IMG/VR virus record: IMGVR_UViG_3300008952_000006
Span: 109,035 to 173,034 of that record
Source of the DNA: a virus
Direction: 5' to 3' (one strand)
Length of the DNA: 64,000 nucleotides
Shown: one piece after another, positions 1,523 to 63,894 of the stretch
How positions within the stretch are numbered: position 1 is the first letter of the stretch
Layout of the letters: the number at the start of each line of letters is the position of its first letter
Translations under genes and position numbers: made by a program
Notes under the pieces: model-generated
The model's input: the letters and a program-made list of their open reading frames with translations, nothing else
Databases searched by the model: none
Told to the model about the DNA's origin: nothing

Positions 1523-1523
1523 A

Positions 1524-43616: not shown

Positions 43617-44324
43617 TTACCTTTTCGGGAGAGACTGTAGCGGGGCTAAAGTGTTAAAAGCGGGTAGTGGCTTCTTTTTAGGGGCTGCCGTAGTCGCAGA
43701 AGCGCCAAAGAGCCCACCTTTTGGGAACGCCGAGGATGGGTTAAGGGCGGCTTGCCCACTCCCATAGGTCATGTACCCTCGGAAAGCCTGTCGGGGAATC
43801 CCAGTAATATGACGGGGATCAGCGAGCCTTGTGGAGGACAGGCCTGCTTTGGTAGCCTTGTTTAAACCCAAGATTGGGCTATTTCCAGCAGGCCCATAGC
43901 CGCCCCATGAACGGTTCCATGGAGTGAGGGCTCCCTTAGCTGTTGTGACAGCCTTTTTTCTGGCTAGCAAGGACGCTGCCGGGGCCACCTTTCTCGCTCG
44001 GAGGGCTTGGACGCCCAATTGTAATGCCTTCCCTATCCCGCCAGCAACCCGTACAGCGGGGATCATGCTCGCAACACCAAACGCTGTTGCCCATGGATTC
44101 TTTTTAACGTACCGAACAGCGGGTTCGAGCTTTTGTAATAACGACGTGGTGGGTTTATTAGGCTTAATATCAGCAGGGTTTACCGCGCCGCCTTTAGGGC
44201 GGACACCGAGCCCACTCGCATCAAGGGCCACCTTCTCAAAACGAGACCCCGCACCGCGTACTTCATTAGTGTAAGCTGCGCTTGATATCTTCATAAATGG
44301 GCCGGGGCAATTCTTGGTGTACAT
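43617..44324 (-). CDS. Basic protein with KxA leader (putative head cargo)
   Basis: FEKVA ending at residue 33; K/A/G-rich; paralog of 44324-45715. Confidence 0.6.
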   Translation of the reverse strand: MYTKNCPGPFMKISSAAYTNEVRGAGSRFEKVALDASGLGVRPKGGAVNPADIKPNKPTTSLLQKLEPAVRYVKKNPWATAFGVASMIPAVRVAGGIGKALQLGVQALRARKVAPAASLLARKKAVTTAKGALTPWNRSWGGYGPAGNSPILGLNKATKAGLSSTRLADPRHITGIPRQAFRGYMTYGSGQAALNPSSAFPKGGLFGASATTAAPKKKPLPAFNTLAPLQSLPKR

Positions 44325-45715
44325 TAGTTAACCCCCTTCTTTAGCTGACCGAACTCGTCGTAACCTTGTGGTGGGTAAAATGGGGCGGTCTGACTTGGGT
44401 AGTATCGGTCAGCGTACCGCTGTAGGGCGGCCTGCTCCGCCTGAGGATTCCTCGCAACAGGTTGTGGCGTCGGTTTTTTCTTCGCGACAGCCTTAGTCGC
44501 TGGCTTGCCCTTGTACTTGTTGTATGCCTTGCTTATGGCGCTTTGCGCCATGCCTGCGGGGGTGTAGGGGTGGACGTAGTTAGCATAAGCCCCAGGAATG
44601 GCCGCAACTGTATTAGCCGTGTTCTGTGCGGGCGTCATCTTATTCAGCGTGCCTCTCGCCGCGTTGTATGCAAAGTCCCCTACCTGAGTAGCCCCCAATC
44701 CCACGCCTACACCGCGCATCGCCCTTCGCGTATTGGTAAGCTTCGCCCAGGGACTAGCAACATTCTTCATAAACGGTACTGCGCCAGTCACCTGACCAGC
44801 GAGTGAGGCTGTCCCCTTAGCCGCCTTAAGCGATTTGGGCAGATTGCGTCCTACGCCTGCGGCCCACTTGGGTGTCTGCAGCATCATCCCTGACCAATGG
44901 CGGTTCCAAGGCATGCCGCCGCTCAAAGCCGATTTTGCTTGTCGGAAGTGTCTAGCGCTCCGCAGCTTTTGGGTAACATTAGATGCATTAAGAGCGCCGC
45001 GCCCCAGCCAAGCAGCCCTAGCGCCTTTAGCTGCAAGGGTAGCGCCTTTGGCTCCCCCAGAAACAGCAGCCCCAACAGGAGTGACCATCGCAGCAGTTGC
45101 GGCGTAATCTGCTGCAGTCCAGGGATTGCGTTTCGCCCAACCTGCGCCACGGGTAAGAGCGGAGTCTCTAAAGGGCGAGTAGGTGTCTCCCAGAGCCTTA
45201 GAAAGGAAAGTTTGGCCCGGAGCCATCCTTGCGTCTCTAAATGCCGATTGCGCTTTTGCTGGGTTAGTCTTTTGGAGCGCTCTCACCTGCTTTTGGACGG
45301 GGTGGGTGCCTGTGGCTGCCTGGGCGACAGTTTTTGCCATGCTGCCAGTGTGTGACGCGCCACGCTTGAAATCCCCAAAGACTCCCTTAACAGCCCCGCC
45401 GGTTCTGCCAGACTTCCAAGAACTTGGAGAAAGGACCGCGCCAGCACCTCGTTTAAGGTTCTGCCAGCCTCTTCCAACCAAATTAAAATCATCACCCTGT
45501 CTGGGCGTGTTCCATTGAGACGGGGCGGGTGGTTTTGGGGGGCCCTGTGTTGTCTGCCCCTTAGCGATACGCTTTATAACTTTGCCTTGCGGATCTGTTA
45601 TTACAGCACCAGCTTGCTTCTCCATGGGAGCAGATAGCCCGCGCACAAAAGCATCATAGACAGCCTTGCGTGCGGCTACCTTTATTAGTGCATTTTGTAG
45701 GGCGTCTTCTTTCAT
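44324..45715 (-). CDS. Basic protein with KxA leader (putative head cargo)
   Basis: LIKVA (residue 14) and MEKQA (residue 35); highly basic, A/G-rich. Confidence 0.6.
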   Translation of the reverse strand: MKEDALQNALIKVAARKAVYDAFVRGLSAPMEKQAGAVITDPQGKVIKRIAKGQTTQGPPKPPAPSQWNTPRQGDDFNLVGRGWQNLKRGAGAVLSPSSWKSGRTGGAVKGVFGDFKRGASHTGSMAKTVAQAATGTHPVQKQVRALQKTNPAKAQSAFRDARMAPGQTFLSKALGDTYSPFRDSALTRGAGWAKRNPWTAADYAATAAMVTPVGAAVSGGAKGATLAAKGARAAWLGRGALNASNVTQKLRSARHFRQAKSALSGGMPWNRHWSGMMLQTPKWAAGVGRNLPKSLKAAKGTASLAGQVTGAVPFMKNVASPWAKLTNTRRAMRGVGVGLGATQVGDFAYNAARGTLNKMTPAQNTANTVAAIPGAYANYVHPYTPAGMAQSAISKAYNKYKGKPATKAVAKKKPTPQPVARNPQAEQAALQRYADRYYPSQTAPFYPPQGYDEFGQLKKGVN

Positions 45716-47376
45716 TTTAGATTACCTTGGTGTTTGGCCCGAAAGTTCCCCTGCCAATCAGTCCCGACAGCGGGATTATTCTTATCCCATGTAGCGCCTC
45801 GGGAGTTCTTTTGATAATCCCAGGCCTTATCGGAGAGACCGGGCGGTCTAGGCCCGATGAATTTTGTCCGATCAGCATTTCTCTTGGCATCTTTCGGTGT
45901 CTGTTCGCTTATGCCGGATAGGTAGCCCCCCGCCCTAAGCCCTGGATGGTAATCACGGTACCCTGATACTTGCATACCGAGAGTCGGGATAGCCTGTGGC
46001 CCTAGGTATGAGGCCCCCATCGCGGCTCCGTAACCACCCCTCGCAAGCCTTTTGGGGTCCCAAGGGGCTGGACCTTCCCCACCAATAAGCGGCGTGCCTT
46101 TTGGGAGTCCCTGGCCCCCAAGGTCCGTTGGGGTATAGCTGTGCCCGTAAAAACCAGCCCCAGCCCCAGCAGCGCCAAGAGCACCACCCTTCAGTGTCTG
46201 TGCCAGAGGACCCCCAGTTCGAGCCCAGTGAGTATCAGGCTTAAATCCTTCGGGGGCTTTTTTTCTAGCGCCTCTTCGGGTCCAAGCCCTGCCTTCTGGG
46301 GTGGTTGGTATTATTTTGGTATATTCCTTAGTCTCTGGGTGGGGCTTAGTTGATGTGTAAATGTTCTGGCCGCGTCCTGTCCCCCGGGATGTAAGTTTTT
46401 TGGGGTCAAGCCACGTCTTCCAATTCATTAAAGAAGATTGATCAGGTGCGCGGGTATAGTTTTTAGGTATACCGGACGCGTACTGATTTAGAGACTCTGC
46501 CAATTCCTCAGCCTTGGTTTTGGGTGCTGGCCCATGACCCTCTGGCCATTTTTTTGGTTCGGGGGGATTCGCAGGCGGGGTATCCGGGCGACCGCCATGC
46601 ACTGGCTTCGTTTTATTGGTTGGTTTAGATGGTGCGGGCTTAACCGTAGTAGTTGCGCCTGAAGGCTTCACCCCCGCTGCTGCGGTTTGTTGGGGAGTAG
46701 CTTGGGCTGTTGGTGGTCGTGGTGTGAATTTTGGGGCCGCCGAGGACACGCCCCCTTGGTTAATAGGGGTCATATTGGGTTGGGGCGTAGTGGTGGGTGG
46801 TTTTGCTAAAGTCTGCCCCGGGAAACCCGTAGTAGGACCGCCTGTGTATGGGGGTGCGGTTGGCGTGGTCGGTGGTTTTACACGTGGTGCTGCGTCCGTC
46901 AGCGTTTTCCAGGCTTGGCTGAGGCCCTGCCCTTTGGGAGCTTTTCTGTATGCATCAATAGCTGGGCCAGCCCGCTGGAAGAGTTTGGCGGCCCCAGAAA
47001 GCCCCTTGGTTTTGTTCGCTGTCTTCTCTAAGAAAGCTCCGTAATGAGCCATGGCTGTCTTTGGTAAACCAGACCCCATGCCGCCCACAGGGTTCTGCTT
47101 CTTTGCGGCTGTGTTTATATTTTGGGCCATGGGCTTGGACGCGTTTGAGCTAACACCGCGCATTTTAAACAATCGAGTCATAGCATCAATATGGGGGGCA
47201 ATGTTGCCAGAGCCACCTAGCGTCATTGCACTGCCGCCTTGCGAAGGCGTAGGTTGAGAGTCTGCTCTTGGGCCTGACCCACCAACAGAGCTTGCGCCAA
47301 CAATGGCGGTCTTAATTTTAGCGGTATGACGCAAAATCCTAAGTGCTGCTTCCTTGTCGAATTCGATGTCAACCAT
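45712..47376 (-). CDS. Basic P/T-rich protein with multiple KxA motifs (putative head cargo)
   Basis: FDKEA, KIKTA, LPKTA, FLEKTA; glycine-rich GGALGAAGAGAG segment. Confidence 0.6.
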   Translation of the reverse strand: MVDIEFDKEAALRILRHTAKIKTAIVGASSVGGSGPRADSQPTPSQGGSAMTLGGSGNIAPHIDAMTRLFKMRGVSSNASKPMAQNINTAAKKQNPVGGMGSGLPKTAMAHYGAFLEKTANKTKGLSGAAKLFQRAGPAIDAYRKAPKGQGLSQAWKTLTDAAPRVKPPTTPTAPPYTGGPTTGFPGQTLAKPPTTTPQPNMTPINQGGVSSAAPKFTPRPPTAQATPQQTAAAGVKPSGATTTVKPAPSKPTNKTKPVHGGRPDTPPANPPEPKKWPEGHGPAPKTKAEELAESLNQYASGIPKNYTRAPDQSSLMNWKTWLDPKKLTSRGTGRGQNIYTSTKPHPETKEYTKIIPTTPEGRAWTRRGARKKAPEGFKPDTHWARTGGPLAQTLKGGALGAAGAGAGFYGHSYTPTDLGGQGLPKGTPLIGGEGPAPWDPKRLARGGYGAAMGASYLGPQAIPTLGMQVSGYRDYHPGLRAGGYLSGISEQTPKDAKRNADRTKFIGPRPPGLSDKAWDYQKNSRGATWDKNNPAVGTDWQGNFRAKHQGNLK

Positions 47377-49316
47377 TACAAAGTCCTCTTGGGAGCCGAA
47401 ATGATGTTCGGGACAAGAACATCAAACGGGTCGTCAGCCCCAGACATTAGCGTCATTAGATTAATAGGACCAGCATTATCCGGTACTTCGATGCGGCGCT
47501 TTAGTGAAAGAGGGGCAATAGACACGTCTACTTGTATGCCCTGAACCAAGGAGAACTCTACATATCCGTTAGAGTCAGTTGTATATGTTCTTTGGGTGTC
47601 GAAGACAGCCGTTCCTGAAAAGAGCTGGGGTCGATGGATCAGGCCAACGTGCACAGTTGCATTCTTAACGGGGGTACCATTCATATGGTACAGGGTGGCG
47701 TACAGGGTGCATAAGCTTGCAGGGGATGGCGGAGAAGTAACTGTCGGGTTGAACACCTCTGAAATTAACTGTATCGCTTGCACGTCTGTGCCTTCCGGCT
47801 CTGAGTACAGATAAGGGTCCGAGGCCTCTAATTTCGAGTTAAACACTGTGTATGAAAAATTATTAGTTGTGAAAGAGCTACCGGCCTTGGTTAGAGTAAA
47901 AATATATTCCCCGGGAGGGATCTCTAAGCGAAGACTTCCAGCAATGTCGGTGACCCCTTGAGCAACCTGAGTGCCATCTAACTCGCTCACAGTCACTGTT
48001 GTAATTGTATGCGGTGTCCCGTTAAGACCAGAGGTTCTGCCAGCGGTAATCTGTACCACTTCCTTGGCTTCAGCGGGAGTAATTAGATAGTGGGTTAGAT
48101 GCGTTTGCACACCAGCGTCATGCCAGACAACGTAAGCTTCTTGCGCGGTGGTGAAGGTGTGGTTTTGTATTACATAGCCGTCTACGCCGATAGCGTAGGG
48201 AGCCTGTGTTGAAACCCCATCAGAGCCTTGAGCAACTATATTACCGCCCTGTGACCCGAGCGCAGTAATACCGAGTGCGGACAGGACGCTCGCAGTGCCG
48301 CTTTGCACGTCAATCTGGCTTGTGGCCCCCGCGCTGCCCGCTGTAGCAGTTAGAGTGAAATAATTAGTGTCGTCCTCTAGCGTCACTAATAATCTATCCC
48401 CCTGGGCACCACCGGCAGTCATGATCAGTGTTTCAAAGAGAAGCTTCAGCTCAAAAAAGGTTACCGCAGCGCTATTGCCAACATTGCTCAGAGCAGGGTT
48501 AGAATTAAAGGTTCCCTCCGCAAGACCGGTATTTGCAGCAAACGTACCCCCGAAGTCAGATAGTGTAATCTGTGAGTCAGAGCCCTGACTATCAGTAGTA
48601 ATCTTCAGGTTTCCACCGTCATCAGAAACATAAACAGCCCCCATCTGGGCGTTCAGTGCGGCTATATACGATGCTTGGCCGGGGCCAGCGCCGTTCAGGT
48701 CAATTGTTCCTGGGGGGTGACCGTCAATTTGATAAGTTGCCGTATCTGTCCCTACACCGAAACCGTACAAGGCAGCACCGCCACTGGTTTCTGCTGGTGC
48801 GCATAAGAACTGGACTGTTTGGGCTCCCGTAGGGGCTGTGTCCGGTAATACCTGAATGGTGACTTGGTCTAGGTTATTAACAGAAATAGTGCTTACTGCT
48901 TGGTCCCCAATATAAGATGCGTACGTAAGAGGAAAGACCGAGGAGCCGGAACTATTATAAAGATGTGCGGTAACGGTCTGACCGATACCACCAACAATGC
49001 TGCTCTCTAGGACGATGTCTACTTCAGCGCCTATCGGAAAATCAGAGATGGGAGTGCCCGCCTCCAAGGTGTCCGAGTAGATAACCACAGGGACATTGCC
49101 GTACTTAAAGCGTAACTGATACTGGCCGGGATCTTCTGGGATAAAGGCAGCGCTTAGGTACAGGTTCGGAGCAGTTGTTACTTGGGTCATAGTGAGTACG
49201 GCTAGTTCAACCCCACCACTCGCGTCTAAAATTTGCAGCACAAAAGGCTCGGCTCCGACTTCTGCGGCGGAATCGAAGAATGGTATTGTTCTGCTTATGC
49301 CTAGCTGTGCTTTCAT
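47376..49316 (-). CDS. Acidic beta-rich virion structural protein (Ig-like/prealbumin-fold domains)
   Basis: 646 aa; VAQGVTDIAGSLRLEIPPGEYIF; TTDSNGYVEFSLVQG. Confidence 0.6.
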   Translation of the reverse strand: MKAQLGISRTIPFFDSAAEVGAEPFVLQILDASGGVELAVLTMTQVTTAPNLYLSAAFIPEDPGQYQLRFKYGNVPVVIYSDTLEAGTPISDFPIGAEVDIVLESSIVGGIGQTVTAHLYNSSGSSVFPLTYASYIGDQAVSTISVNNLDQVTIQVLPDTAPTGAQTVQFLCAPAETSGGAALYGFGVGTDTATYQIDGHPPGTIDLNGAGPGQASYIAALNAQMGAVYVSDDGGNLKITTDSQGSDSQITLSDFGGTFAANTGLAEGTFNSNPALSNVGNSAAVTFFELKLLFETLIMTAGGAQGDRLLVTLEDDTNYFTLTATAGSAGATSQIDVQSGTASVLSALGITALGSQGGNIVAQGSDGVSTQAPYAIGVDGYVIQNHTFTTAQEAYVVWHDAGVQTHLTHYLITPAEAKEVVQITAGRTSGLNGTPHTITTVTVSELDGTQVAQGVTDIAGSLRLEIPPGEYIFTLTKAGSSFTTNNFSYTVFNSKLEASDPYLYSEPEGTDVQAIQLISEVFNPTVTSPPSPASLCTLYATLYHMNGTPVKNATVHVGLIHRPQLFSGTAVFDTQRTYTTDSNGYVEFSLVQGIQVDVSIAPLSLKRRIEVPDNAGPINLMTLMSGADDPFDVLVPNIISAPKRTL

Positions 49317-49327
49317 TTACAAAGTGC

Positions 49328-49555: not shown

Positions 49556-49567
49556 GATGTACCCCCT

Positions 49568-49864
49568 TTATTTGTGTCTACTAGTAAGTTGTTCCCATGC
49601 CTGTTGCTTCCTAAGCTCGTCAGGAGTCTGTGGGGTCGGGATCGACTTCCCGATACGCTGAAAATTTGTCTTTATGTTTCGGACTTTTTGTATATCCCCT
49701 TCTGGGGCGGTGGTTGCCGCTGTAGGGGATATTGGTTTTGGTTGCTTGACCGGTGCTTGACTGCCTTGGATTCCAAGCATCTTCTTAAAAGCAGAGTACG
49801 TCCGAGAAAGAAGTCCCGGATCTTCTGCTAATTTAGCCAAGTAGTCTGTTTTACCAACCGGCAT
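49568..49864 (-). CDS. Small basic protein with KxA leader
   Basis: MPVGKTDYLAKLA; P/T/K-rich. Confidence 0.6.
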   Translation of the reverse strand: MPVGKTDYLAKLAEDPGLLSRTYSAFKKMLGIQGSQAPVKQPKPISPTAATTAPEGDIQKVRNIKTNFQRIGKSIPTPQTPDELRKQQAWEQLTSRHK

Positions 49865-49872
49865 AAAAACCC

Positions 49873-51225
49873 CTAAGAAGTAAGTGCGTACATGCCTAAT
49901 CCACCAGCGCCAAGAGCCGCGTAAGGGGCGATCTCCTTGAGGCCTTTTGCTTTCTGCCAGCCCTTGCCAAGGTTCATCGCCGCTTGAGCGCCCGCCCCTG
50001 CGATGCCACCGAGAGCCCCAGATTGGAGCGCAGAGTTAGCAAGACTTGGGCCATACGCCTTCCCGTAGTCTTTCATCGTTTGCCAGCTTTCAAAGGGATT
50101 CTCCGGCAAGGGGGTGCTGCGAGCGCCCTTAGGCAGGGGCGTGTTAACGCCGCCCGGGGGCATATGAACACCCAGCCGGTCTAATTGTTTCGCATCAGCC
50201 ATAGCATTGAATTGCGCAGAGGTTGGGGTCTTGCCAGCTGCCTTGGCTGCCTTGCCCTCAGCGGCAGCTACACGAATAGCTTGTGCTTCTGCTGCTGGCA
50301 GCTTTTGAAGCGCCCGAATACGAGAAGCATCTTTACCGGCACCCAGGAGCGCGCCGCCAACAGCGGTCCCGAAACCAGTTTGCGCCACGTTCTGGGTTAC
50401 TGGGGGACCTACGAAAGAGCTTTTAAGATTTTTTAGCCACCCCGGGAACCCCGCTGTTTTCACTAGGCGGTTACCGTATGTGTCTGTGTAGATGGCCATA
50501 GATGCTTGTTGAATCCCGCTAACCATAACGGAGCCTTCTTTTTTCTTACCCTTCTTCTTGAGAATGGCTGCTTGGATCTTATCTGGCAGCTTAGATTGCT
50601 TGCCTTTGAGCAAAGGGCTCTCGTCCATAGCGGGAGAGAAGGTCGCCTTGGCGGAGCTTTCTTTTTTCTTGTCTACGCCTTTGGTTAGCGCCTTGTAGCC
50701 CGCGATTCCTCCGCCGACGCTACCAGCTGTCCCCCCAATGAGCCCGGGGATCAGCAGTCTGAGCTTTACGGCGGCGTCATCGCCGGAACGAGCGCCGCTT
50801 ATTATCCGGCTGTATGCCTTAGGATTTGTCTTGCTTAGGAGAGCAAGGGATGCGAGGCCAGCGCCCATGCCTACTGCGCCCCCGCCCCAGCCCCCAAGTA
50901 TTGAGCCGCCAGCGCCACCGATGCCGCCCTTTACAGCGCCTTCGGTACCTCTACCGGACTTCTCCCCTTTTTCGAGGCCCTTGTAGGCACCTAAACCCGC
51001 GCCTGCAAGCATTGCGAGTGCTGCTTGCTTGGTCTTTTGCTTCTTTTTCTTAAGGATAGCAGCCTGAATCTGGTCTGGGAGCTTGGACTGCTTGCCCTTA
51101 AGTGCGGGACTTTCGTCCATAGCGGGGGAGAAAGTAACCTTAGCGGCTTCCTTTTCAAGTTCGACTAATGAGACTGCTTTTTTCATGCTCTTTAGTGACG
51201 TGTTGAATCTTAAAATGTCGTCCAT
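49873..51225 (-). CDS. Modular basic protein with glycine zippers, internal repeat and several KxA motifs
   Basis: LEKEA, KTKQA, LVKTA; two copies of TFSPAMDESPxLKGKQSKLPDxIQAAILKKK. Confidence 0.65.
   Translation of the reverse strand: MDDILRFNTSLKSMKKAVSLVELEKEAAKVTFSPAMDESPALKGKQSKLPDQIQAAILKKKKQKTKQAALAMLAGAGLGAYKGLEKGEKSGRGTEGAVKGGIGGAGGSILGGWGGGAVGMGAGLASLALLSKTNPKAYSRIISGARSGDDAAVKLRLLIPGLIGGTAGSVGGGIAGYKALTKGVDKKKESSAKATFSPAMDESPLLKGKQSKLPDKIQAAILKKKGKKKEGSVMVSGIQQASMAIYTDTYGNRLVKTAGFPGWLKNLKSSFVGPPVTQNVAQTGFGTAVGGALLGAGKDASRIRALQKLPAAEAQAIRVAAAEGKAAKAAGKTPTSAQFNAMADAKQLDRLGVHMPPGGVNTPLPKGARSTPLPENPFESWQTMKDYGKAYGPSLANSALQSGALGGIAGAGAQAAMNLGKGWQKAKGLKEIAPYAALGAGGLGMYALTS
50551..51144 (-). 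repeat. Diverged ~100-bp direct repeat (copies at about 51043-51144 and 50551-50653) encoding a ~33-aa peptide
   Basis: AKVTFSPAMDESPALKGKQSKLPDQIQAAILKKK vs AKATFSPAMDESPLLKGKQSKLPDKIQAAILKKK; mostly synonymous nucleotide differences. Confidence 0.9.
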
Positions 51226-51229: not shown

Positions 51230-52111
51230 TTACTCCGTGAGGTATCGCTGAAGCTTCTTTTTGATAGTATTCTTCAGACGGCTAACTTGATAATCGGGGA
51301 TTTTCATTGCGCGAGCAATATCACCGGTTGAAGAAGTTTGGGTCTTCCCATAGCCAGTTAAATATTCATAAACGGTACGCTCGTTACCGGTTAATTCATA
51401 TTTAAAAAGGCGAAGAACTTCTTCGGATTTTGAGGGAACTAAAGCATATGGGTCTTCTTCAAAACCCTGGGAAAGTAAATCATTACGAAGCTCGGACTCC
51501 ATGCGCCCCGCTTCTGCGAGCGACCACCCGAGATCTTCAGCCACTTCGGTAGTGGTGGGTACGCGCCCCAGGGTCTCTACAAGCTCATCTCTAGCAGATG
51601 TGTACTTTTTAATTTTGTAGACACGATTCTCAGGGATGCGGCCAATATTCTGGTTTTCTACAATAAATCTTTTTGCTTTATCTAGGTAACGGTAGACGTA
51701 TGTGCCTAAAGAACCCTTGCTCGGGTCGTAGGACCTTAATGCGTCCACAAAGCGAAGTTGAAACTCGGACTCAATTGCTGAGTCTGGGATCATCTTTACC
51801 TTGCCTTTGTATACGTTTACTTTGGAGCGAATCATGGGGCGAAAGCTACGGAGAAGTGGGGCTAAGTCCCGGGGGTTTTGGCCTCCGTCCATCCATGCCT
51901 GCCACAGCTTGATCTCGCGAGCCTTCTTGGCGTCTAGATTATCAAGAGCGTTAAAGGTCTCCAGCCCACCGTTATCAGTAGTATCGTCAGTTTTCCTCTC
52001 ATGTTGCTTCACAGCTACCAGTTTCCCATCAACATGGCGCGTGTGTGCATCTACCTGAGTGCTACCGGCATATTTTAGGAAATCGGAAATGGGGTTTGCC
52101 ACGGCTAACAT
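51230..52111 (-). CDS. RNA polymerase sigma-70 family factor (FliA/SigF-like) with N-terminal extension
   Basis: Region 2 DALRSYDPSKGSLGTYVYRYL; region 3 LGRVPTTTEVAEDLGWS; region 4 HTH TGDIARAMKIPDYQVSRLK; start moved to ATG 52111 after GAAGGA. Confidence 0.88.
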   Translation of the reverse strand: MLAVANPISDFLKYAGSTQVDAHTRHVDGKLVAVKQHERKTDDTTDNGGLETFNALDNLDAKKAREIKLWQAWMDGGQNPRDLAPLLRSFRPMIRSKVNVYKGKVKMIPDSAIESEFQLRFVDALRSYDPSKGSLGTYVYRYLDKAKRFIVENQNIGRIPENRVYKIKKYTSARDELVETLGRVPTTTEVAEDLGWSLAEAGRMESELRNDLLSQGFEEDPYALVPSKSEEVLRLFKYELTGNERTVYEYLTGYGKTQTSSTGDIARAMKIPDYQVSRLKNTIKKKLQRYLTE

Positions 52112-52122: not shown

Positions 52123-52806
52123 CTAGGGTTTGGGGTTGGCCAACATCCCCCAAGCCTTTTGGGCTCGAGAATTAGCGGATGCATCAATAACGGTGCCAGC
52201 CTTGCGCACAGGTGCGGGTTTGGGCTTGCCAGTAAATTTATCTATCGACGGTATTTTTTTAGCTCCAAAGAACTTTGAAAAAGGACTAGGGCCTACCCGC
52301 GACATCGGGGGTGGTGATGGTTCCATGTAGGCCTTGTCTATTGTCGCTTCATTTTTAATCTGCTGCTTTGTTTTTCCCAGGGCTGTCGGCTTAGCGGGAA
52401 CTAGCGCAGTGCTTTTGGGGGTTTTCATCAAGTGCCGAGCCTCACGAGCCTCACGAGCATCGGTTTTTTGCATTCTTCGGAGCTTCCTTGCCGTATCGCC
52501 TGGAAAGCCGGGTCTCGCTTGCGGGAGGCCAAACTCAGCAACCATAGCCGCAGAGGGAGAAATCTTGGTCTTGACAGGGGGCCTGTTAGCTATGCCCATC
52601 CAGGCCTGCTGAACATCAGGGGATAGTTTGGGAGTAGTCCCGGGAATCGTTGAGCTACGTGGTTTGGGTGCTGCTCTGTAGGCCGCTTTCATGGCGTCCC
52701 ACCCCTTTGGGATAGCTTTCAAAACACGTATGGGAGTGTCTAAACGACCAGCCTCTTTCTCCAAGAGGAGTTCTTCAATGCGTTGTTTACGTTCGGGGGA
52801 GAGCAT
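52123..52806 (-). CDS. Basic protein with KxA leader (putative head cargo)
   Basis: MLSPERKQRIEELLLEKEA followed by a K/P/A-rich body. Confidence 0.6.
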   Translation of the reverse strand: MLSPERKQRIEELLLEKEAGRLDTPIRVLKAIPKGWDAMKAAYRAAPKPRSSTIPGTTPKLSPDVQQAWMGIANRPPVKTKISPSAAMVAEFGLPQARPGFPGDTARKLRRMQKTDAREAREARHLMKTPKSTALVPAKPTALGKTKQQIKNEATIDKAYMEPSPPPMSRVGPSPFSKFFGAKKIPSIDKFTGKPKPAPVRKAGTVIDASANSRAQKAWGMLANPKP

Positions 52807-52814: not shown

Positions 52815-53030
52815 TTAAGGCTGTTTTGGGGCTGGGATACCAGCCTTTGCGAGGGAAGTAATTTTAGTTGCGGGCTTGCCAATATTACCGGCGAAGTTTT
52901 TTACCTTTTTATAGCCCTTAGCGAGCGCCTTGGCTGCCTGGCCAACGCTGGGTAGCTTAGGCATTCCTATGCCAAAACCAGCTTCTTTGATCTTGCCCTC
53001 TAAAACTTCTTTTCTCTGCTTATTAAGCAT
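52815..53030 (-). CDS. Small basic protein with KxA leader
   Basis: MLNKQRKEVLEGKIKEA followed by an amphipathic basic body. Confidence 0.6.
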   Translation of the reverse strand: MLNKQRKEVLEGKIKEAGFGIGMPKLPSVGQAAKALAKGYKKVKNFAGNIGKPATKITSLAKAGIPAPKQP

Positions 53031-53048: not shown

Positions 53049-53426
53049 TTAAGAAGCGAGAAGAGCGCCAAGGCCTCCAGCGCCAAGAGCGCCACCGCCT
53101 GCAACCAAAGCTTTTTGTTTTGTGGGCAACTTCTTCCAGCTCTTGTAGGCCTTACCGAGCATTTTATTACCTTTTGTCCCAATAAGGGATTTTTTAGCAG
53201 CCCGTGCTTTCAAGAGTTTGCGCAGCAAAAGTGCCGTGCCTCCAGCGCCAACAAGAGCGGCTGCGCCGCCCATAAGCTTGCCCTTGTGCTCCTTCATAAG
53301 CTCAGGCCCTTTTTTCATCGGGTTCCTTTTAAGTTGCTCAAGGGCAACCCGGGCTCTCATCATTCGACTAAGTGCTAATTTTTCTTTTCCCTGCTGTGCG
53401 CGCAGCAAATTTTCAAGGTTGCTCAT
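53049..53426 (-). CDS. Basic protein with KxA leader and two Gly-rich hydrophobic segments
   Basis: Start moved to ATG 53426 after GGAGGAG; MSNLENLLRAQQGKEKLA; GGAAALVGAGGTALL and GGGALGAGGLGALLAS. Confidence 0.65.
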   Translation of the reverse strand: MSNLENLLRAQQGKEKLALSRMMRARVALEQLKRNPMKKGPELMKEHKGKLMGGAAALVGAGGTALLLRKLLKARAAKKSLIGTKGNKMLGKAYKSWKKLPTKQKALVAGGGALGAGGLGALLAS

Positions 53427-53498: not shown

Positions 53499-53708
53499 TT
53501 ACTTAGATGCTTTCACAATATTTTTCAATGACACACCCTTAGTAACAAGAAGAGTCTTCTTGTTTGAGCCCAAACCAAAAGTTTCTTCAACTAAAGCTGT
53601 GTCATTATCCATAATAAGCATATCAGGATTACCCTCATCAGGGGAGCCCTGATCGGGCAATTCCTCATTAAGCTGTGCGTCTACTGGTGTTTGTAATTGT
53701 GAAGTCAC
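53499..53708 (-). CDS. Hypothetical protein
   Basis: GTGA overlap with the hub gene stop; GAGGAG RBS. Confidence 0.55.
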   Translation of the reverse strand: MTSQLQTPVDAQLNEELPDQGSPDEGNPDMLIMDNDTALVEETFGLGSNKKTLLVTKGVSLKNIVKASK

Positions 53709-56700
53709 CCGGTCTCCTCAAGGTCAGCGATGTGACTATCGTCATATGTCCCACCTATGTTTCTAAAACCCTGGCTTCGCAGGGCATTAACGTATGATAC
53801 AACTCTTTGATATCTTAACGAGCGAGGGTCCAGCTTGCTGTCAATGGGCCTCGCGGGCACTGATGGCTCGTCAGTCAATCTGGTTAAGGTCTCAGCAATT
53901 AATGGTTTGCCGTCCACCCCAATAAAATTAGTATAGTCCCCGTAGGCATCGCCATGAAACCCACGTGTAAACACAGGCTTACCAGCGTCATCTACACGGT
54001 CGCCCCCGTACTGCCAAGGGCCTTTGAGTCCCTCTGAGCTAAAGTCCGTCTTTATCTTTAGATAGGGGTTCTGGTTCCCCATTACGTCTAATAATGTCGC
54101 GAACTTTCTGTCTACATACCCATCGATAAACTTGTCTGTATTAGCGCCAATCTCTTTTAGGGCCAGCCAAACATCAGCAAGCTGGTCTGCTGCGCCAGCA
54201 GCGGAAGCGGATGCTGTTGTTAAATCGAGGGGGATTCGGATCTCCTTGTACTCTGTTCCTCCCTGAACGGAAAAAGGAACCGCTACAGTTGTCCCAAGTT
54301 GGAAGTCCTCGTTCTGCGGGTAATCATCTGCACTCACCCCGCTTACAAACTTGATTGGGGGGTCGTCCACAATAGAGTTGCAGCCATACATTTTCTGGTA
54401 ATACTTTGGCCCGATATTCTTTGGGTTGTATATATTGGAAAACCAGGGGGGTAATACACTGGCCTCCCAGGTAAACTTGACATCATGAGACTTTGTGCTG
54501 GAGGAGCGGTAGTCCACAGTAACCCAAACTTCTGGGTACTGAAGGCTCTGGTCTGGTAGAGGGGAGTCTTTGGTTGGTAAATCATCTATTAAGTTCGCCC
54601 CACTGGCAAAGGACCAGCCGTCGTAACCATCTCCGTCCACAGCCCTGACCCGATACTTCAGCTTGGGGTTGTATCTGTCCCCTAAAATCCTTTCTGGGGC
54701 GTCTGCGTTATCAGTGTCAGCCACCAACCTCCCAGAGGCTGTCTTGGACACGACAAGGGTCGTAAACTTGCCTAGGGGCTTCCAAGATGTCTTAGTCTGA
54801 GATCGTTTAGCGTTTATTAGTCCGTCGTCATCCGGCTCCCCAAATAAGCCCGCTGTTTCATTGTGCTCGCGACACTTCACGAGAGATATCAAGGTCTGCG
54901 CTCCGCCCGCCACATCAATCACGTGTGTTATCCCTGCAACCATACCTATATAATGGGTTCCTTTTGGCGGCATAAGCCCAGCGAGCCCAGAACCACCATC
55001 CGTAGATTCAAGGGGTTGAGGCTCATTGGCTGTAATCGAGTAAACGTTATTCCCATCCGGGTCAGCAACGGGGGGAGAGTCTTCGTCCCCTGTCCAAGCC
55101 AAAATGCTACTCTTTGCCTTCAAGGGGTCTAAAACCAGCGCGGGCATGCCTACAACGATCTGCGGAGAGTATTTACAAGTCACTTCCATTGTTCGGGTGC
55201 TGTATCTAGCGGAAACAAACATATAGTTAGCTGCCCGCTGGAGGTGGGGTTGGGGCGAGAACTTAGCCTCACCACTAAACTCCACGTCATCGAACGGTTG
55301 CGTACGCTTGCCTGCATCGATTTCCTGTTGGGCGACCTTCCGTGCTTCCGCAAGACCCTTTGTATGCAGCGTTTTAAATATGTCTGCGTCACCCAGGCCA
55401 ACAATGGAGGGAATAATCCCTGTCCATTTCTCGTGGTTCATTAAAAATGATGCGCCTTTCTTGACTGCTTGGTCGGCGCTTGTATTAGAAGGGCCACCCA
55501 GAATGGCAGAATTTGGTGAGAAGTAGCAGTCCTTCTTGTTTCTGCCGCTTTCTGTCCTTCCGTGTAGCCACAGCCGAGTAATCTCACTCATCCAGTTACG
55601 GCTAAAAGAGATAGACTGGATGTGATCGGGGAATAAAACATTACATTTAGGCGGCGGGACCATGAATAAATCAGGGTGGAAAAACGTAGTCAGGAGTCGA
55701 TCTCGTAACTCTACCGCAGTACGCTTAGTCTTGTAGGTCTTGCCCGTAAGGGAATTTAACATCCCGAGAGCTTCTTCTAGTAGTTTACGGATTTCGTAAT
55801 ATGTTTCGCGGTTATGCCGCAGTATGGTGGCGTTTTCAAGAGCCGCATCAGCATTGTAAAGCGCCGTCTTGCTTATAAATTTAATCTTGCGGTACGCCTC
55901 GTACATGCCTGCAGCCAAATTCCGAGCCTCTTCAGCTTTCTGATATATCTGCTGTACTTTATCGGCGCGTTTTTCCCAGTACACGTTGTTTGTGTCAACG
56001 CTTTTCTTCATCAAAGCGTCGTACCGCTTATTGCCTTCGATAAATAGCGGGCCCTTCTCGGAAAACCCATGTTTAAACCACTCAGTGTTTGACCCTATCC
56101 CACTAGACATGATGCCGTCTTTTATATTCAAGTCATCAAAGGCTTTATGGGTTGCTACATCAATGGCCCCATTTTTCTCGTAGAGCATAAAGTCTCTCTC
56201 GAACGCAATGGAGACTTCCCCGCGCCGCTTCTTCGTGTCCGACGTCTGTTTATTGGCAAGCTCGTAGGTTTTCTGGAGGGCGTTCTCTAGATTGTAAAGG
56301 TAGTCACCCTTCTTGAATTTCCCACCACCAGTCGCAACAGCAACATCAGAGTAGACAGTATCCCCATCGGAAAAGTAAGGGGGAGCCGATTGGGAGTTCC
56401 AAACGTGGTAGATCTTCCCCATGAGCATATTTAAAAACTGTATGAAGGTCGCTGTGTACGTAGCTTGTTTAGAAACACGTAATAAGTACTTCTTAAAAGA
56501 CTTGCTTGCTGTAAATGTGGCTGAGGTGTCGTCTTCGGAAGACGCTCCGACCTGCCTTGTTAACTTAAGACGGACCTCTGCTTGGCTCATGAAGTCGTTA
56601 CACCCAAGAAACTTCTTATCTGCGTCTGGAGAGAAACACCCCGTAGCAGACTCGAGAAGAGAAAAGATCCCCCCGAGCAAGCCGGGTACGTTTGGCATAG

Positions 56701-57295
56701 ACGAAGGTTTGTTCTGCAGCAAGTAAAGGAGGTCTTTTGAGTCGTCTACCTTGCTTGTTCCCCGGTAGAGCTGGGTCGCGCCAGAAAAAATAGCAGTTTT
56801 ATAAGCATTGAACACACTCGAAGACTTCTTTCCCCAATAAAGACGGCAGTTAGCCCAGTAACTAGTGTGGTCACGGCACCCGAGGAGAATCTCGCGGCGG
56901 CTACCAACCTTTTTGAAGCTGTACCCCATCACTTCCCCAACAAAGAGGAGCTTCCAGTTTCGCCAGTCGTTCTTATCCGTTAATAGGACACTCTCACCGG
57001 CCTCTTGTGCCGCAGCCTGTTGGTCTGGCGTTGGTCTTTTTTGGGAGCCGTAGGCCCGTTCATCGCGGTCGTTGAGTCCATGCTGGGTGCCAAGCTCGTA
57101 ACGGGAGTCAAAGTAGAACACATGTACAAGAGTTCGAGGCAGGATCTTGTGGACCTCATCTACAGCTGGGATAGTTAGCGTAGCCGTACCAGAGACGTTC
57201 ACTCCGCAAGAGACCTTTACGGAGGTGACATCTACCTCAACCCCCTCTAAAAAGAGACGGACGCCTAGGTATCTTCCCTGTACGCGACTATCCAT
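53705..57295 (-). CDS. Baseplate hub-like (gp27/GpD-like) tail protein
   Basis: VRLFLEGVEV...ATLTIP...LFVGEV...LGCRD N-terminus; R...V...YSPQIVVGMP...YIGMVAGITH....QTLISL C-terminal hub pattern. Confidence 0.65.
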   Translation of the reverse strand: MDSRVQGRYLGVRLFLEGVEVDVTSVKVSCGVNVSGTATLTIPAVDEVHKILPRTLVHVFYFDSRYELGTQHGLNDRDERAYGSQKRPTPDQQAAAQEAGESVLLTDKNDWRNWKLLFVGEVMGYSFKKVGSRREILLGCRDHTSYWANCRLYWGKKSSSVFNAYKTAIFSGATQLYRGTSKVDDSKDLLYLLQNKPSSMPNVPGLLGGIFSLLESATGCFSPDADKKFLGCNDFMSQAEVRLKLTRQVGASSEDDTSATFTASKSFKKYLLRVSKQATYTATFIQFLNMLMGKIYHVWNSQSAPPYFSDGDTVYSDVAVATGGGKFKKGDYLYNLENALQKTYELANKQTSDTKKRRGEVSIAFERDFMLYEKNGAIDVATHKAFDDLNIKDGIMSSGIGSNTEWFKHGFSEKGPLFIEGNKRYDALMKKSVDTNNVYWEKRADKVQQIYQKAEEARNLAAGMYEAYRKIKFISKTALYNADAALENATILRHNRETYYEIRKLLEEALGMLNSLTGKTYKTKRTAVELRDRLLTTFFHPDLFMVPPPKCNVLFPDHIQSISFSRNWMSEITRLWLHGRTESGRNKKDCYFSPNSAILGGPSNTSADQAVKKGASFLMNHEKWTGIIPSIVGLGDADIFKTLHTKGLAEARKVAQQEIDAGKRTQPFDDVEFSGEAKFSPQPHLQRAANYMFVSARYSTRTMEVTCKYSPQIVVGMPALVLDPLKAKSSILAWTGDEDSPPVADPDGNNVYSITANEPQPLESTDGGSGLAGLMPPKGTHYIGMVAGITHVIDVAGGAQTLISLVKCREHNETAGLFGEPDDDGLINAKRSQTKTSWKPLGKFTTLVVSKTASGRLVADTDNADAPERILGDRYNPKLKYRVRAVDGDGYDGWSFASGANLIDDLPTKDSPLPDQSLQYPEVWVTVDYRSSSTKSHDVKFTWEASVLPPWFSNIYNPKNIGPKYYQKMYGCNSIVDDPPIKFVSGVSADDYPQNEDFQLGTTVAVPFSVQGGTEYKEIRIPLDLTTASASAAGAADQLADVWLALKEIGANTDKFIDGYVDRKFATLLDVMGNQNPYLKIKTDFSSEGLKGPWQYGGDRVDDAGKPVFTRGFHGDAYGDYTNFIGVDGKPLIAETLTRLTDEPSVPARPIDSKLDPRSLRYQRVVSYVNALRSQGFRNIGGTYDDSHIADLEETG

Positions 57296-57297
57296 GA

Positions 57298-57699: not shown

Positions 57700-57704
57700 G
57701 CAGG

Positions 57705-59222: not shown

Positions 59223-59223
59223 G

Positions 59224-59445
59224 CTACTCCTCCGATTGGCCCGCCATCGCTCGTGCGGCGGACAACCCTAGTGATGGCCCGTCAGGGCCGAAGATATCAC
59301 TAGTAATAATACGCCGTGAGGGGACAATATCGGAGTCTTCCTCTATAAAAGATTCCGGGTTGACCACTTCGCCCTTAGCGAGTCCTACCCCGCCCTGAAT
59401 TAATTCCATCTCATCACGCATAGCTGCAAGTATTTCGGCATTCAT
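59224..59445 (-). CDS. Small acidic hypothetical protein
   Basis: AGGA RBS; N-terminus MNAEILAAMRDEMELI. Confidence 0.55.
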   Translation of the reverse strand: MNAEILAAMRDEMELIQGGVGLAKGEVVNPESFIEEDSDIVPSRRIITSDIFGPDGPSLGLSAARAMAGQSEE

Positions 59446-59461
59446 AGTAATTTATCCTATG

Positions 59462-61375: not shown

Positions 61376-61385
61376 GCCTGATCCC

Positions 61386-61571
61386 CTATACGCTTAAACG
61401 CTCTTCTTGAACTTGCTTACGCAATTCTTTACATTGTGCGGCTACTGTCTGTAGTGTCTTTCGTACCCTACCACCAGCGGCGTTGTTGCCATTACCATGT
61501 TTTTTTGCGTCAACCAGTCCTTCGGTCAATAACGCGATCATATCATCAATTTGCTGTTCTGCTGTTTTCAT
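61386..61571 (-). CDS. Histone H1-like nucleoid protein (Hc1 family)
   Basis: DAKKHGNGNNAAGGRVRKTLQ...KELRKQV matches the Hc1-type pattern GNxAAGxRxRK...KExRK. Confidence 0.8.
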   Translation of the reverse strand: MKTAEQQIDDMIALLTEGLVDAKKHGNGNNAAGGRVRKTLQTVAAQCKELRKQVQEERLSV

Positions 61572-61573
61572 CT

Positions 61574-62590
61574 TTATTTCCTACCTTTCTTTTTCTTTGG
61601 TTCTTTAAAGTATTTAGACCCCCCAGGTATCAAACTTCGGTGATTCAACGATTGAGCCGTGGGTATAAATGTCGGGGGCGCTTTGCGGCCTGGATAGGCC
61701 GCTTCAAAAGAGCTGGTTTTCGGTACAGCATAATATGTGCCTAGCCGGGACCTATGAAAGTTATAGTTATCAGCTTGGCCCCCTAGCGCCTCTATCTTAG
61801 AGCCCAGGTGACCTAGATTGCTGCCACGGAAAACCCCGGGGGGTACACCGGGCTTGGGTGCGCCTGCGCCAACTTGATGTAGCTTTTCGTACGCCTTGTT
61901 CATCGCTACACCGCGAGCCGTGGTTTTTTCTGTGGGCTGCGGTCGAGTAGAGCTTACAACTCGGAAAGGCTGCTTCGTGGCAGGCTGCCCTATAGGTTGC
62001 TGGGGTGTCGCAATTGCTGCCTGCGACACAGGCTGGGTTGGTGTACTAATAGTCTGTGTTTGGGGCTGTGTTTGGGGCTGTGTTTGAGGAGCGGGCTTCG
62101 GGGCGGGCGTGACCGGTGTTTCGAGCTTAAGCGGGGGTGGTACATTCATCTTGCCCGTTGCTGAGACCTTTGGTGCTTTAAAATCCGCTGGTTTTGTTGT
62201 GGGGGGCGTGACAGGGGTAGCGGGTTTTGGGGCCGGGGTCGGCGTAGGCTTCGGGGTAACCGTTGGTGTGGCGGTTGTTGCCGTGGTGGTTGGTGGCTTA
62301 GCGGTAGTCGTTACAGCGGGCGGCTGGGCGTTTACTGGTGTAGTCCCCGTTGCGGGTTTCTTTGCGGGCTGCTTCTTTGGTTGTGGTTTAGGTAGATTGG
62401 CTGCCGCAGGGGATAGTGATGCGGGCTTAAGGTAAGGAGCCTTTCTATTAGGGTCGAGCAGTGGTAATCCTGCGGCGGTCTTCTCCAAGACACTATTAGT
62501 GATAATACTTTGAACATACTTGTCCGCTATCCTAGCCAGGGCGATCTTCTCGAACTCATCCTTAAAGGCGGCGAACATAACTTTATTCAT
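61574..62590 (-). CDS. Basic P/T/K-rich protein with tandem KxA leaders
   Basis: MNKVMFAAFKDEFEKIA...SVLEKTA; long low-complexity region; C-terminal KKKKGRK. Confidence 0.65.
   Translation of the reverse strand: MNKVMFAAFKDEFEKIALARIADKYVQSIITNSVLEKTAAGLPLLDPNRKAPYLKPASLSPAAANLPKPQPKKQPAKKPATGTTPVNAQPPAVTTTAKPPTTTATTATPTVTPKPTPTPAPKPATPVTPPTTKPADFKAPKVSATGKMNVPPPLKLETPVTPAPKPAPQTQPQTQPQTQTISTPTQPVSQAAIATPQQPIGQPATKQPFRVVSSTRPQPTEKTTARGVAMNKAYEKLHQVGAGAPKPGVPPGVFRGSNLGHLGSKIEALGGQADNYNFHRSRLGTYYAVPKTSSFEAAYPGRKAPPTFIPTAQSLNHRSLIPGGSKYFKEPKKKKGRK
62054..62086. repeat. 12-bp tandem repeat (CTGTGTTTGGGG x ~2.7) encoding PQTQ
   Basis: Seen directly in the sequence; in frame within 61574-62590. 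Confidence 0.85.
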
Positions 62591-62602
62591 TTCTGTTCCT
62601 CC

Positions 62603-63352
62603 TTACCATCCAGGCATCTTGTCCATTTTATTGCGAAGTAACTTTCCTTGCTCTTTTGTAATTCTTTTAAAAGACCTTGTCGTGGTAGTGCCGAAGAGGC
62701 TGAGAGGGAAGCCCTCCCTCTCTATGATCTTACGCATAGCCTTAGGTATCTTGGCTCCCGGTTGCATGAACTCGGCAGCCCTGGGACCAAAGCGATCTAC
62801 TAGTTGTTTCCGAAGAAGCGCGAATTCCGGCTCCCGTATAGACCCAAAGGATCTACGTGCTCCCCGAGACCCCGGACCAGACAAGCGGCTTAAAAGATTG
62901 AAGTCTTTAGCGAGAACAACAGGATTGGCATGAAGGGAGCCCATAGCAAGAGGGGCTGATCGTTCTGCAGATTCGTGAAGAGCCGTAATATCTCTTAGTG
63001 CCCGGACGCGCTTACGCCCAGCCGTGGGGTCAATCAGCTGCCCAACCTGGGGGTGCATAATAATAGTTCCAGGCTTCTTCCTGGCCACTATGGGAGCCAG
63101 CTCCTTGGCGATGTGTTCCGACACGCGCTTTCCTAGTACCCCCTGCTGGAACTTCTCCATCTTTTTACCAAGTGGGCTCCTAGTCTGACGCTTAGTTGGC
63201 AGAGCAAGGGCCCCAAACATATGGGTGACGGCATCTTCAGGCACTTCCCGCTTGACTAGTTGAGCGCCTGCCCGAAGTTGTGCCAATGTCGCGGCTACTT
63301 TAAGTTTGCCTGCAAGTTTCTTTTTTGCAATATGTCGCTCTAATACGTTCAT
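62603..63352 (-). CDS. Basic protein with KxA leader and HExxE motif
   Basis: MNVLERHIAKKKLAGKLKVA; ITALHESAERS...GSLHANP. Confidence 0.6.
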   Translation of the reverse strand: MNVLERHIAKKKLAGKLKVAATLAQLRAGAQLVKREVPEDAVTHMFGALALPTKRQTRSPLGKKMEKFQQGVLGKRVSEHIAKELAPIVARKKPGTIIMHPQVGQLIDPTAGRKRVRALRDITALHESAERSAPLAMGSLHANPVVLAKDFNLLSRLSGPGSRGARRSFGSIREPEFALLRKQLVDRFGPRAAEFMQPGAKIPKAMRKIIEREGFPLSLFGTTTTRSFKRITKEQGKLLRNKMDKMPGW

Positions 63353-63894
63353 TAGGGTCGCCTAGCTGGTGCTGTCCAGGGCCCTGCTTTGTTAGTCTGG
63401 CCCCCAGACAAGCCCGATAGGCCTTTTGGGCGACTCGACAAACTGCCGCGAACAGCGGTTGCTTGCGACCCCTTCATAGTACGAGCGACAGTTTCAGGGG
63501 AAGCCAAGCTGAGGCTTCTCCCTTGTTGCATAACGCCTTTCCACCCGCCTGCGGGGCCTGTCCCCTTGGCTGGGGCGGCTGGGACTTTCGGAGATACTGG
63601 TTTTTTTGCTTTAACCTGGAGAGGCGAGAAACCCATGTGTTGTGTTGGGGGCTTCAAGCCCATCCGAGCTTGTCCAGAGGGCGGTCCCAAGGGTTGCTTC
63701 TGTTGTAAGGGTTGTCGAGCGCTCAGGGATGGCTTGGCAACCGGCTGTGGTCCCGTCTTTAGGGGGTTGCCTTTGGGGAGGGAGATGCCTTTGGGGTTTA
63801 CGCCGCCGATAGACCCAATTGGTGATTGAGCCAGCTTAGAAAGCAGCGCTTCTGTTAGTCGTCTCTTTGTAGTGTATTTCTCTAGTGCGTTCAT
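63352..63894 (-). CDS. Basic P/G/K-rich protein with KxA leader
   Basis: MNALEKYTTKRRLTEALLSKLA followed by a low-complexity body. Confidence 0.6.
   Translation of the reverse strand: MNALEKYTTKRRLTEALLSKLAQSPIGSIGGVNPKGISLPKGNPLKTGPQPVAKPSLSARQPLQQKQPLGPPSGQARMGLKPPTQHMGFSPLQVKAKKPVSPKVPAAPAKGTGPAGGWKGVMQQGRSLSLASPETVARTMKGSQATAVRGSLSSRPKGLSGLSGGQTNKAGPWTAPARRP

Follow-up and report, generated by a model that had tools for sequence, protein, structure and literature searches.

In phage T4 the prohead protease gp21 cuts after L/I-x-Glu, and the internal proteins are loaded through N-terminal capsid targeting sequences of 10-19 residues which gp21 then removes (PMC9026906, PMC10052503). The head proteases gp175 of phage phiKZ and gp245 of phage SPN3US act at sites of the form A/S/G-x-E (PMC5694885, PMC10052503), gp245 cutting after A-x-Glu (PMC10052503). 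These giant-phage enzymes trim the N-terminal propeptides of many internal or ejected proteins, including subunits of the virion RNA polymerase, and also process themselves at the C-terminal side (PMC5694885, PMC10052503). Here we describe a candidate system of this kind in a phage of a marine lineage. The stretch analysed, called the window, is the final 64 kb (64,000 nucleotides, positions 109,035 to 173,034) of the complete 173,034-bp virus record IMGVR_UViG_3300008952_000006, which has a 119-bp direct terminal repeat. Twelve proteins encoded on its minus strand, the carriers, display the motif [FLMK]-x-K-x-A in a short N-terminal leader. The feature is real and conserved in the sequences compared; judged from them, it most likely represents a propeptide and cut-site system of a familiar type, distinguished by a new specificity and by a cargo set that is unusually large and changes fast.

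The likeness to T4 gp21 and the proteins IPI, IPII, IPIII and Alt concerns the fold of the protease, the two fixed residues spaced two apart with a cut after the second (predicted here), and the sites at the N terminus of the capsid protein and in the protease itself. It extends to short N-terminal leaders on small basic proteins whose bodies diverge. The T4 site is L/I-x-Glu while here it is Lys-x-Ala; the carrier set is also larger than in T4 (12, or ~26 genome-wide) and includes a sigma factor, several unrelated leader types occur, and the carrier genes are interleaved with tail genes. SPN3US gp245, like gp21, shares the spacing of a defining residue, any residue and the residue at the cut. 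In phiKZ and SPN3US the residue at the cut is Glu instead of the predicted Ala, and transcription relies on a five-subunit RNA polymerase, whereas the present 173-kb genome codes for a single-chain RNA polymerase and a sigma factor.

The carriers are found in a run of 21 minus-strand genes at window positions 43617-63894. On the circular map this run extends over the terminus into the minus-strand genes at genome positions 20-8970. The original prediction named twelve minus-strand proteins with [FLMK]-x-K-x-A leaders, and every pentapeptide was recovered at its start and position. They are given below in window coordinates, with length in amino acids (aa), isoelectric point (pI) and site.

63352..63894, minus strand: 180-aa P/G-rich protein, pI 12.0, MNALEKY-type leader; LSKLA at residues 18-22 (63829-63843)
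62603..63352, minus strand: 249-aa protein, pI 11.4, MNVLERH variant of that leader; KLKVA at residues 16-20 (63293-63307), with a further KKKLA at 63311-63325
61574..62590, minus strand: 338-aa P/T/A-rich protein, pI 10.4; FEKIA at residues 13-17 (62540-62554) and LEKTA at 35-39 (62474-62488)
53049..53426, minus strand: 125-aa glycine-zipper-rich protein, pI 11.3; KEKLA at residues 14-18 (53373-53387)
52815..53030, minus strand: 71-aa protein, pI 10.4, ML-x3-RK leader; KIKEA at residues 13-17 (52980-52994)
52123..52806, minus strand: 227-aa protein, pI 10.7, ML-x3-RK leader; LEKEA at residues 15-19 (52750-52764)
51230..52111, minus strand: 293-aa RNA polymerase sigma factor with a 15-residue leader; FLKYA at residues 11-15 (52067-52081)
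49873..51225, minus strand: 450-aa G/A-rich glycine-zipper protein, pI 10.1, with an internal repeat; LEKEA at residues 23-27 (51145-51159)
49568..49864, minus strand: 98-aa protein, pI 10.1; LAKLA at residues 9-13 (49826-49840)
45712..47376, minus strand: 554-aa P/G-rich protein, pI 10.3; FDKEA at residues 6-10 (47347-47361), KIKTA at 20-24 (47305-47319) and LEKTA at 116-120 (47017-47031)
44324..45715, minus strand: 463-aa A/G-rich protein, pI 10.9; LIKVA at residues 10-14 (45674-45688) and MEKQA at 31-35 (45611-45625)
43617..44324, minus strand: 235-aa protein, pI 11.2; FEKVA at residues 29-33 (44226-44240)

In each of the twelve carriers the first or main site has its last residue between positions 10 and 33, and the switch in composition predicted to follow the leader is real: their pI values are 9.0-12.0 and the sequences are P/G/A/T-rich, often with glycine-zipper stretches. 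Most carrier starts are preceded by a purine-rich stretch resembling a ribosome-binding site. The interleaved acidic proteins were said to be largely free of the pattern, and the N-terminal motif is found in none of the nine non-carriers, of which the large ones are conserved and acidic to neutral (pI 4.2-6.9) and three small ones have a pI of 8.0-9.0. The carriers are mostly hypervariable. They are not all basic proteins of no recognizable family, one of them being a phage sigma factor. The other basic carriers matched no PHROG or Pfam family, and in the whole arm the PHROG and Pfam scan returned only the sigma factor, a histone H1-like protein of the Hc1 family and one CARDB immunoglobulin (Ig)-like domain, a few other Ig-like domains scoring under the Pfam cut-offs.

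The motif is present in the first 40 residues of 12 of the 21 minus-strand proteins, against 2.3 expected from shuffles of the same residues, and none of 5000 shuffles reaches 12 carriers; the enrichment over composition-matched sequence is borne out. Because the pattern had been picked after the data were seen, extra controls were run. Bare K-x-A is not significant alone (13 vs 7.4 expected), nor is it the top pair in a blind scan of all gapped residue pairs, where F-x-K is among the leaders; the signal is therefore the three-position motif. When a hydrophobic residue is fixed two positions upstream, (K,A) comes out ahead of every other of the 400 pairs over the N-terminal 40 residues of the window proteins (11 vs 2.8 expected). 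Hydrophobic-x-K-x-A is likewise found 33 times against 6.1 expected in the plus-strand proteins of five related loci (z 11.4; 95% null maximum 5.5). Under the same constraint Arg-x-Ala, Lys-x-Leu, Lys-x-Val, Lys-x-Ser, Lys-x-Gly and Glu-x-Ala do not exceed expectation; such chemically similar pairs being at chance level, richness in Lys and Ala and simple amphipathic periodicity are excluded. Helical periodicity, considered as a source of the motif, was rejected by the residue-pair scan.

The fixed [FLMK]xKxA pattern was also counted out of sample. It is carried by 5 of 10 genes in the arm beyond the terminus (1.4 expected, p 0.003) and by 7 of 29 in the head block (2.3 expected, p 0.002), but by only 7 of the 133 genes outside the minus-strand virion blocks (5.7 expected, p 0.34). 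The pair ranking and the chance level elsewhere uphold the view that the motif is a residue-specific recognition site confined to virion genes. The N-terminal 40 residues of the twelve carriers hold 16 sites altogether and the remaining 2803 residues hold 8, a ~12-fold higher N-terminal density that is inflated, the carriers having been selected for bearing such a site. A looser count of hydrophobic-x-K-x-A gives ~26 carriers genome-wide. No x-Glu pattern, neither L/I-x-Glu of T4 nor A/S/G-x-Glu of the phiKZ group, emerged from the unbiased scans.

The motif had also been expected in the prohead protease and in the major capsid protein, both encoded outside the window, and was found in the two of them. 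The protease is a 562-aa protein (genome 78986-80674) that matches the PHROG head maturation protease (1e-11). Sequence searches against Pfam and the solved structures of the Protein Data Bank (PDB) gave no match and only the fold search worked there. An AlphaFold model built from 44 homologues has an N-terminal domain with a predicted local distance difference test (pLDDT) score of ~85-92, and the sole matches above noise are three chains of T4 gp21 (5jbl; probability 1.0, TM 0.62 on the target, E 3e-3), the proteases of herpes simplex virus 1 (HSV-1), varicella-zoster virus (VZV) and pseudorabies virus (PRV) appearing only among the weak matches. His104 and Ser160, candidate catalytic residues, are invariant in the 44 homologues (39-78% identity). 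K-x-A/S sites at residues 29-31, 229-231, 259-261, 265-267 and 483-485 are kept in 38-44 of the 44 sequences, whereas the intervening stretches differ in length and in sequence. They are located in, or at the edge of, low-confidence model segments (27-32, 218-235, 251-265 and 470-489) separating well-folded parts, so that conserved K-x-A sites in linkers of a gp21-fold protease are what this protein offers. The same protein (L003:15987-17675, minus strand) has invariant C170, C173 and C184 and a near-invariant H186 inserted in the gp21-like domain, a cluster that is possibly a zinc site. Several homologues of ~890-950 aa feature inteins (PF14528, PF05203, PF14890).

The 406-aa protein encoded at genome 75013-76233 has the HK97 fold (pLDDT 86), with matches to the D3 and HK97 capsid proteins at E ~1e-11. 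It was aligned with 134 full-length representatives to give 135 sequences mutually <50% identical. In the columns of its G-K-E-K-I-A sequence (K25-x-A27), Lys is found in 98 of the 135 and Ala or Ser in 110. K-x-[AS] occurs within the first 50 residues in 127 of them, just ahead of a conserved Y-I-R-D-x-L-R-E segment. The K-x-A, widely conserved, closes a 27-residue N-terminal piece. A 224-aa acidic protein encoded adjacent to the protease, a candidate scaffold, has four E-K-x-A sites.

Conservation of the carriers was followed in 17 loci fetched around sigma homologues by a sigma alignment search, a single-sequence locus search with the 1196-aa protein of the arm having retrieved two relatives only. 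The homologues were recovered from marine samples, Tara among them, on contigs of 170-190 kb. BLAST finds the sigma factor and the large structural proteins in the 17 loci at 23-80% identity; most basic carriers escape it even in relatives that are 34-80% identical in the neighbouring genes. Among the 9 basic carriers covered by the loci, 5 have no BLAST-detectable homologue and 3 more are matched only locally, and the syntenic slots of the relatives are occupied again by basic proteins opening with 1-3 hydrophobic-x-K-x-A sites. Across the six nearer loci the motif is carried by 21 of 28 basic proteins, compared with 14 of 70 others (Fisher 8e-7; 5.4 expected from shuffles). The motif is kept both in orthologues and in syntenic non-homologous proteins. 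The residue following the motif Ala is variable in relatives, and some leaders hold the motif two or three times in succession.

Individual slots illustrate this behaviour. The 554-aa carrier keeps FDKGA, FTKEA or LTKEA in relatives, and the 463-aa carrier keeps L-x-K-V-A together with a second F/M-E-K-x-A. The L006 counterpart of the 98-aa carrier has ITKLA at the matching place, and the L006 protein syntenic to the 125-aa carrier has KVKLA at residues 10-14. Basic proteins syntenic to the 227-aa carrier hold 1-3 sites in L015, L016, L017 and L019. Similarity of the 450-aa carrier to proteins of relatives is partial only. For the 249-aa carrier a protein atlas search gave scores in the chance range, the atlas model being disordered.

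The sigma factor matches phrog_351 (1.5e-12) and Pfam Sigma70_r3 (29.0 bits, cut-off 25.3), Sigma70_r2 remaining under its cut-off (16.3 bits, cut-off 24). Alignment of the protein with 120 homologues (121 sequences, 49-87% identity) reveals a near-invariant leader: F11 is found in 117, L12 in 107, K13 in 118 and A15 in 113, with Ser replacing Ala in 6, and the position following the Ala varies. In a more distant clade a related leader occurs with its site displaced (L-D-K-E-A), and still more distant sigmas, including Gp10 of Salmonella phage Arash, have none; the leader therefore behaves as an add-on module. Directly after it, at residues 18-39, is a conserved V-x-A-H-T-R-x(3-4)-G-K-x-V-x-V-x-x-H-x-R module whose V20, H23, R25, V34, H37 and R39 are near-invariant in the 120 homologues and which is absent from Arash and the distant clades. 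A stretch resembling this module opens an unrelated 485-aa open reading frame (ORF) in L007 (16307-17764).

The idea of one leader common to the twelve carriers did not survive: they share only the five-residue site, set in at least five unrelated leader types. The carriers starting at 63894 and 63352 have the MNALEKY-type leader of ~20 residues (consensus MNALEKYAAKKxL, then K-x-A). The other ten have at least four other types, among them ML-x3-RK, F-D-K-x-A-A-L, A-L-I-K-V-A-A-R and the sigma type. The MNALEKY leader is present in 9 genes genome-wide, the seven beyond the two carriers being located at genome 20-8518 (five) and just downstream of the large terminase gene (two). An exact degenerate-codon search located it on another five viral contigs, attached there to different basic bodies, while a word-index search with the first 40 residues of one MNALEKY protein gave only the self-match. 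Where residues of these leaders are identical, their codons agree in only 41% of comparisons, and selection therefore acts at the peptide level; a DNA- or RNA-level motif and a recent duplication of the leader were both rejected, synonymous codons differing freely. In a 178-kb relative a 193-aa ORF (L009:10321-10902, minus strand) has two tandem MNALEKY leaders split by a small conserved helical module (A-N-I-A-K-V ... A-I-K-A-A-Y-P), which in L016, L017 and L019 stands at the start of the post-sigma protein as well.

The leaders are probably propeptides cut by the prohead protease, which would mark capsid-internal cargo as in T4 by a different code. Each would be an N-terminal propeptide ending in hydrophobic-x-Lys-x-Ala, the predicted recognition site of the phage's own 562-aa T4 gp21-fold protease. 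We infer that the leaders are cut, that the protease cuts after the Ala and that the carriers lie inside the capsid. Proteins bearing the site would enter the procapsid and be trimmed there along with the capsid protein and the protease itself; the trimmed carriers would then remain next to the DNA within the head and probably pass into the host together with it. The cargo would comprise a fast-turnover set of very basic, low-complexity or glycine-zipper proteins and the sigma factor, the latter as a pro-sigma matured inside the capsid. By analogy with the T4 capsid targeting sequence, the longer MNALEKY-type leader may be a capsid address; its conservation, limited to two of the twelve carriers, would argue for targeting distinct from cutting. 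Entry may require only the five-residue site or may depend on the MNALEKY-type leader as address. What the bodies do is a matter for guesswork: the carriers might be DNA-condensing proteins or ejected effectors, and the bodies might serve neutralization of DNA charge, a membrane conduit (glycine zippers) or anti-defence as T4 IPI. Their rapid turnover is compatible with weak constraint and with an arms race.

The proposal of an analogous system with K-x-A specificity accordingly holds for the residue-specific, conserved and virion-restricted motif and for the gp21-fold protease, and fails for a single common leader. A number of observations weigh against cutting by the head protease. The carrier genes lie among genes of tail and baseplate type and not in the head block, and in the more distant loci the same arm has no enrichment (2 of 12 basic proteins with the motif). 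The single-chain RNA polymerase, the expected partner of the sigma factor, has no such leader, and among the MNALEKY-type leaders encoded elsewhere in the genome several lack K-x-A altogether or have K-T-S at the end. In the capsid protein model the site falls in a predicted helix (residues 20-31), not in a loop. Virion coverage of the Arash capsid protein stands at 86.6%, a value that would accommodate the loss of a 29-residue propeptide without being diagnostic of it; the Arash paper and its supplement report coverage per protein only and no peptide lists, so that N-terminal loss cannot be read from them, and the 100% virion coverage of the Arash sigma is irrelevant because that protein has no leader. 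No paper describing a K-x-A code was found in the literature searched, and cleavage-site information sought in the phage G paper was not found there.

The motif might instead be an uncut docking element: a short helix, retained on the mature protein, with the scaffold, portal, capsid interior or DNA as its binding partner. It often occurs in predicted or likely helical, amphipathic sequence, and the MNALEKY leader is conserved over ~13 residues, beyond what a protease site needs. However, the protease has copies of the motif in the low-confidence linkers that join its folded domains, with flanks variable in sequence and length, and some leaders have it two to three times in a row. Linker sites and tandem repeats fit cutting better than docking, and a T4 gp21-fold protease is present; docking is rather unlikely. 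Recognition or cutting by another agent, such as a host protease or a tail-assembly or export step, would make the carriers tail-internal or secreted proteins. This would agree with the position of their genes in the tail/baseplate arm and with the glycine-zipper, membrane-like segments of several bodies, but the capsid protein and the head protease bear the same motif and the leaders are not hydrophobic signal peptides, and we regard this explanation as improbable.

The invariance of the lysine also invites the thought that it is the acceptor of a ubiquitin-like conjugation cascade of the phage, the motif being a tagging consensus and not a cut site. A ThiF-type E1 is encoded at genome 54439-55101 (Pfam ThiF 1.8e-17), yet it is unmatched in three complete genomes, those of Arash, G003 and G005, which nevertheless keep the capsid K-x-A (G-L-V-K-E-A, G-K-E-K-V-A and G-K-E-K-I-A, respectively). 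An acceptor lysine would moreover leave unexplained the strict Ala two residues on and the N-terminal and linker positions, and there is very little chance that tagging is the answer. That the pattern is a by-product of Lys/Ala-rich helical composition, picked after the fact, is hardly credible: bare K-x-A is only modestly above expectation and not the top gapped pair, and the residue set was chosen post hoc, but this is contradicted by the local-composition shuffles, the controls with similar residues and the out-of-sample gene sets, as well as by the conservation seen among 120 sequences of the sigma factor, 44 of the protease and 135 of the capsid protein.

Cutting by the head protease can be extended to a fuller scheme, which is held tentatively and at somewhat below even confidence. 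A marine phage lineage with genomes of ~170-190 kb would have a T4-fold head protease requiring Lys two residues before the Ala at the cut, a specificity not found in the literature searched. Portable N-terminal address-and-cut modules, of MNALEKY and other types, would load the capsid with an open-ended, quickly exchanged set of basic proteins and with the phage's own sigma factor as a pro-sigma, all to be delivered alongside the DNA. The principle is not new, T4, phiKZ and SPN3US doing likewise with other codes. If K-x-A is the cut site, it provides a sequence rule listing the head-packed and probably injected proteins of abundant uncultured marine phages, whose injected proteome would become readable from sequence. 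It would define a third specificity class among the proteases of the gp21/assemblin lineage, one that, like the herpesvirus enzymes, cuts behind an Ala, and a candidate portable tag with which foreign proteins might be brought into capsids. With its removable leader the sigma factor would be the phage equivalent of the pro-sigma factors of bacteria and would tie head maturation to phage transcription.

Herpesvirus assemblin, a maturational protease, cuts between Ala and Ser in (V/L/I)-x-Ala-Ser. It resembles the present system in a distantly related fold (seen in the weak matches of the fold search), in the Ala before the cut (predicted here) and in a defining residue two positions earlier; that residue is aliphatic in herpesviruses and Lys here, where the Ser after the cut is replaced by a variable residue. 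In Bacillus sporulation pro-sigma-E and pro-sigma-K have a short N-terminal pro-sequence removed by a dedicated protease. The analogy is one of logic only, without homology of leader or protease, and the place of processing proposed here is the procapsid.

The nearest cultured relatives are Arash (PMC10585845) and the Vibrio phages D69, D148 and D181, which share the sigma factor at 31-32% identity. Arash shares also the capsid protein, with G-L-V-K-E-A at the homologous position, but lacks the sigma leader and has a syntenic arm without basic leader proteins. Its sigma Gp10 and its RNA polymerase subunits were detected in virions (PMC10585845). Arash gp4 (L008 2528-5821), a 1097-aa structural protein with the second-highest virion spectral count, contains K-x-A at no fewer than 12 places (K-A-A at six of these) along with long glycine-zipper stretches. 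Its counterpart in the present genome, judged by size and position, is a 1287-aa protein encoded at genome 3417-7280.

Three further genes of the run, not among the twelve carriers, serve as context or negative contrast.

61386..61571, minus strand: 61-aa histone H1-like protein of the Hc1 family (PF07432, E 2.7e-12, 46.8 bits, cut-off 23.5), context
53705..57295, minus strand: 1196-aa conserved structural protein without the N-terminal motif, negative contrast
47376..49316, minus strand: 646-aa acidic (pI 4.2) conserved structural protein without the motif, negative contrast

The Hc1 protein, a member of a chlamydial-type DNA-compacting family inside a phage structural operon, is 76% identical in L015 and has, by eye, an L006 counterpart at the matching place. 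The 1196-aa protein may be the counterpart of Arash gp8, as suggested by an N-terminal resemblance seen by eye, without alignment. Among the giant proteins, one of 2560 aa (window 12346-20028, minus strand) has Y-F-G-K-L-A followed by G at the start, at residues 5-10, while those of 1202, 2161 and 2311 aa lack an N-terminal site; along the ~8,000 residues of the giants the motif is very infrequent.

The repeat of the 450-aa carrier is ~35 residues long (T-F-S-P-A-M-D-E-S-P ... K-L-P-D-x-I-Q-A-A-I-L-K-K-K) and present in two copies, at about residues 30 and 193; in the L017 counterpart this element comes after the leader site. The adjacent carriers at 43617-44324 and 44324-45715 have in common a K-[KR]-N-P-W-[AT] element followed by a glycine/alanine-rich hydrophobic stretch, an arrangement that is found also in the L006 counterpart and looks like a swappable module.

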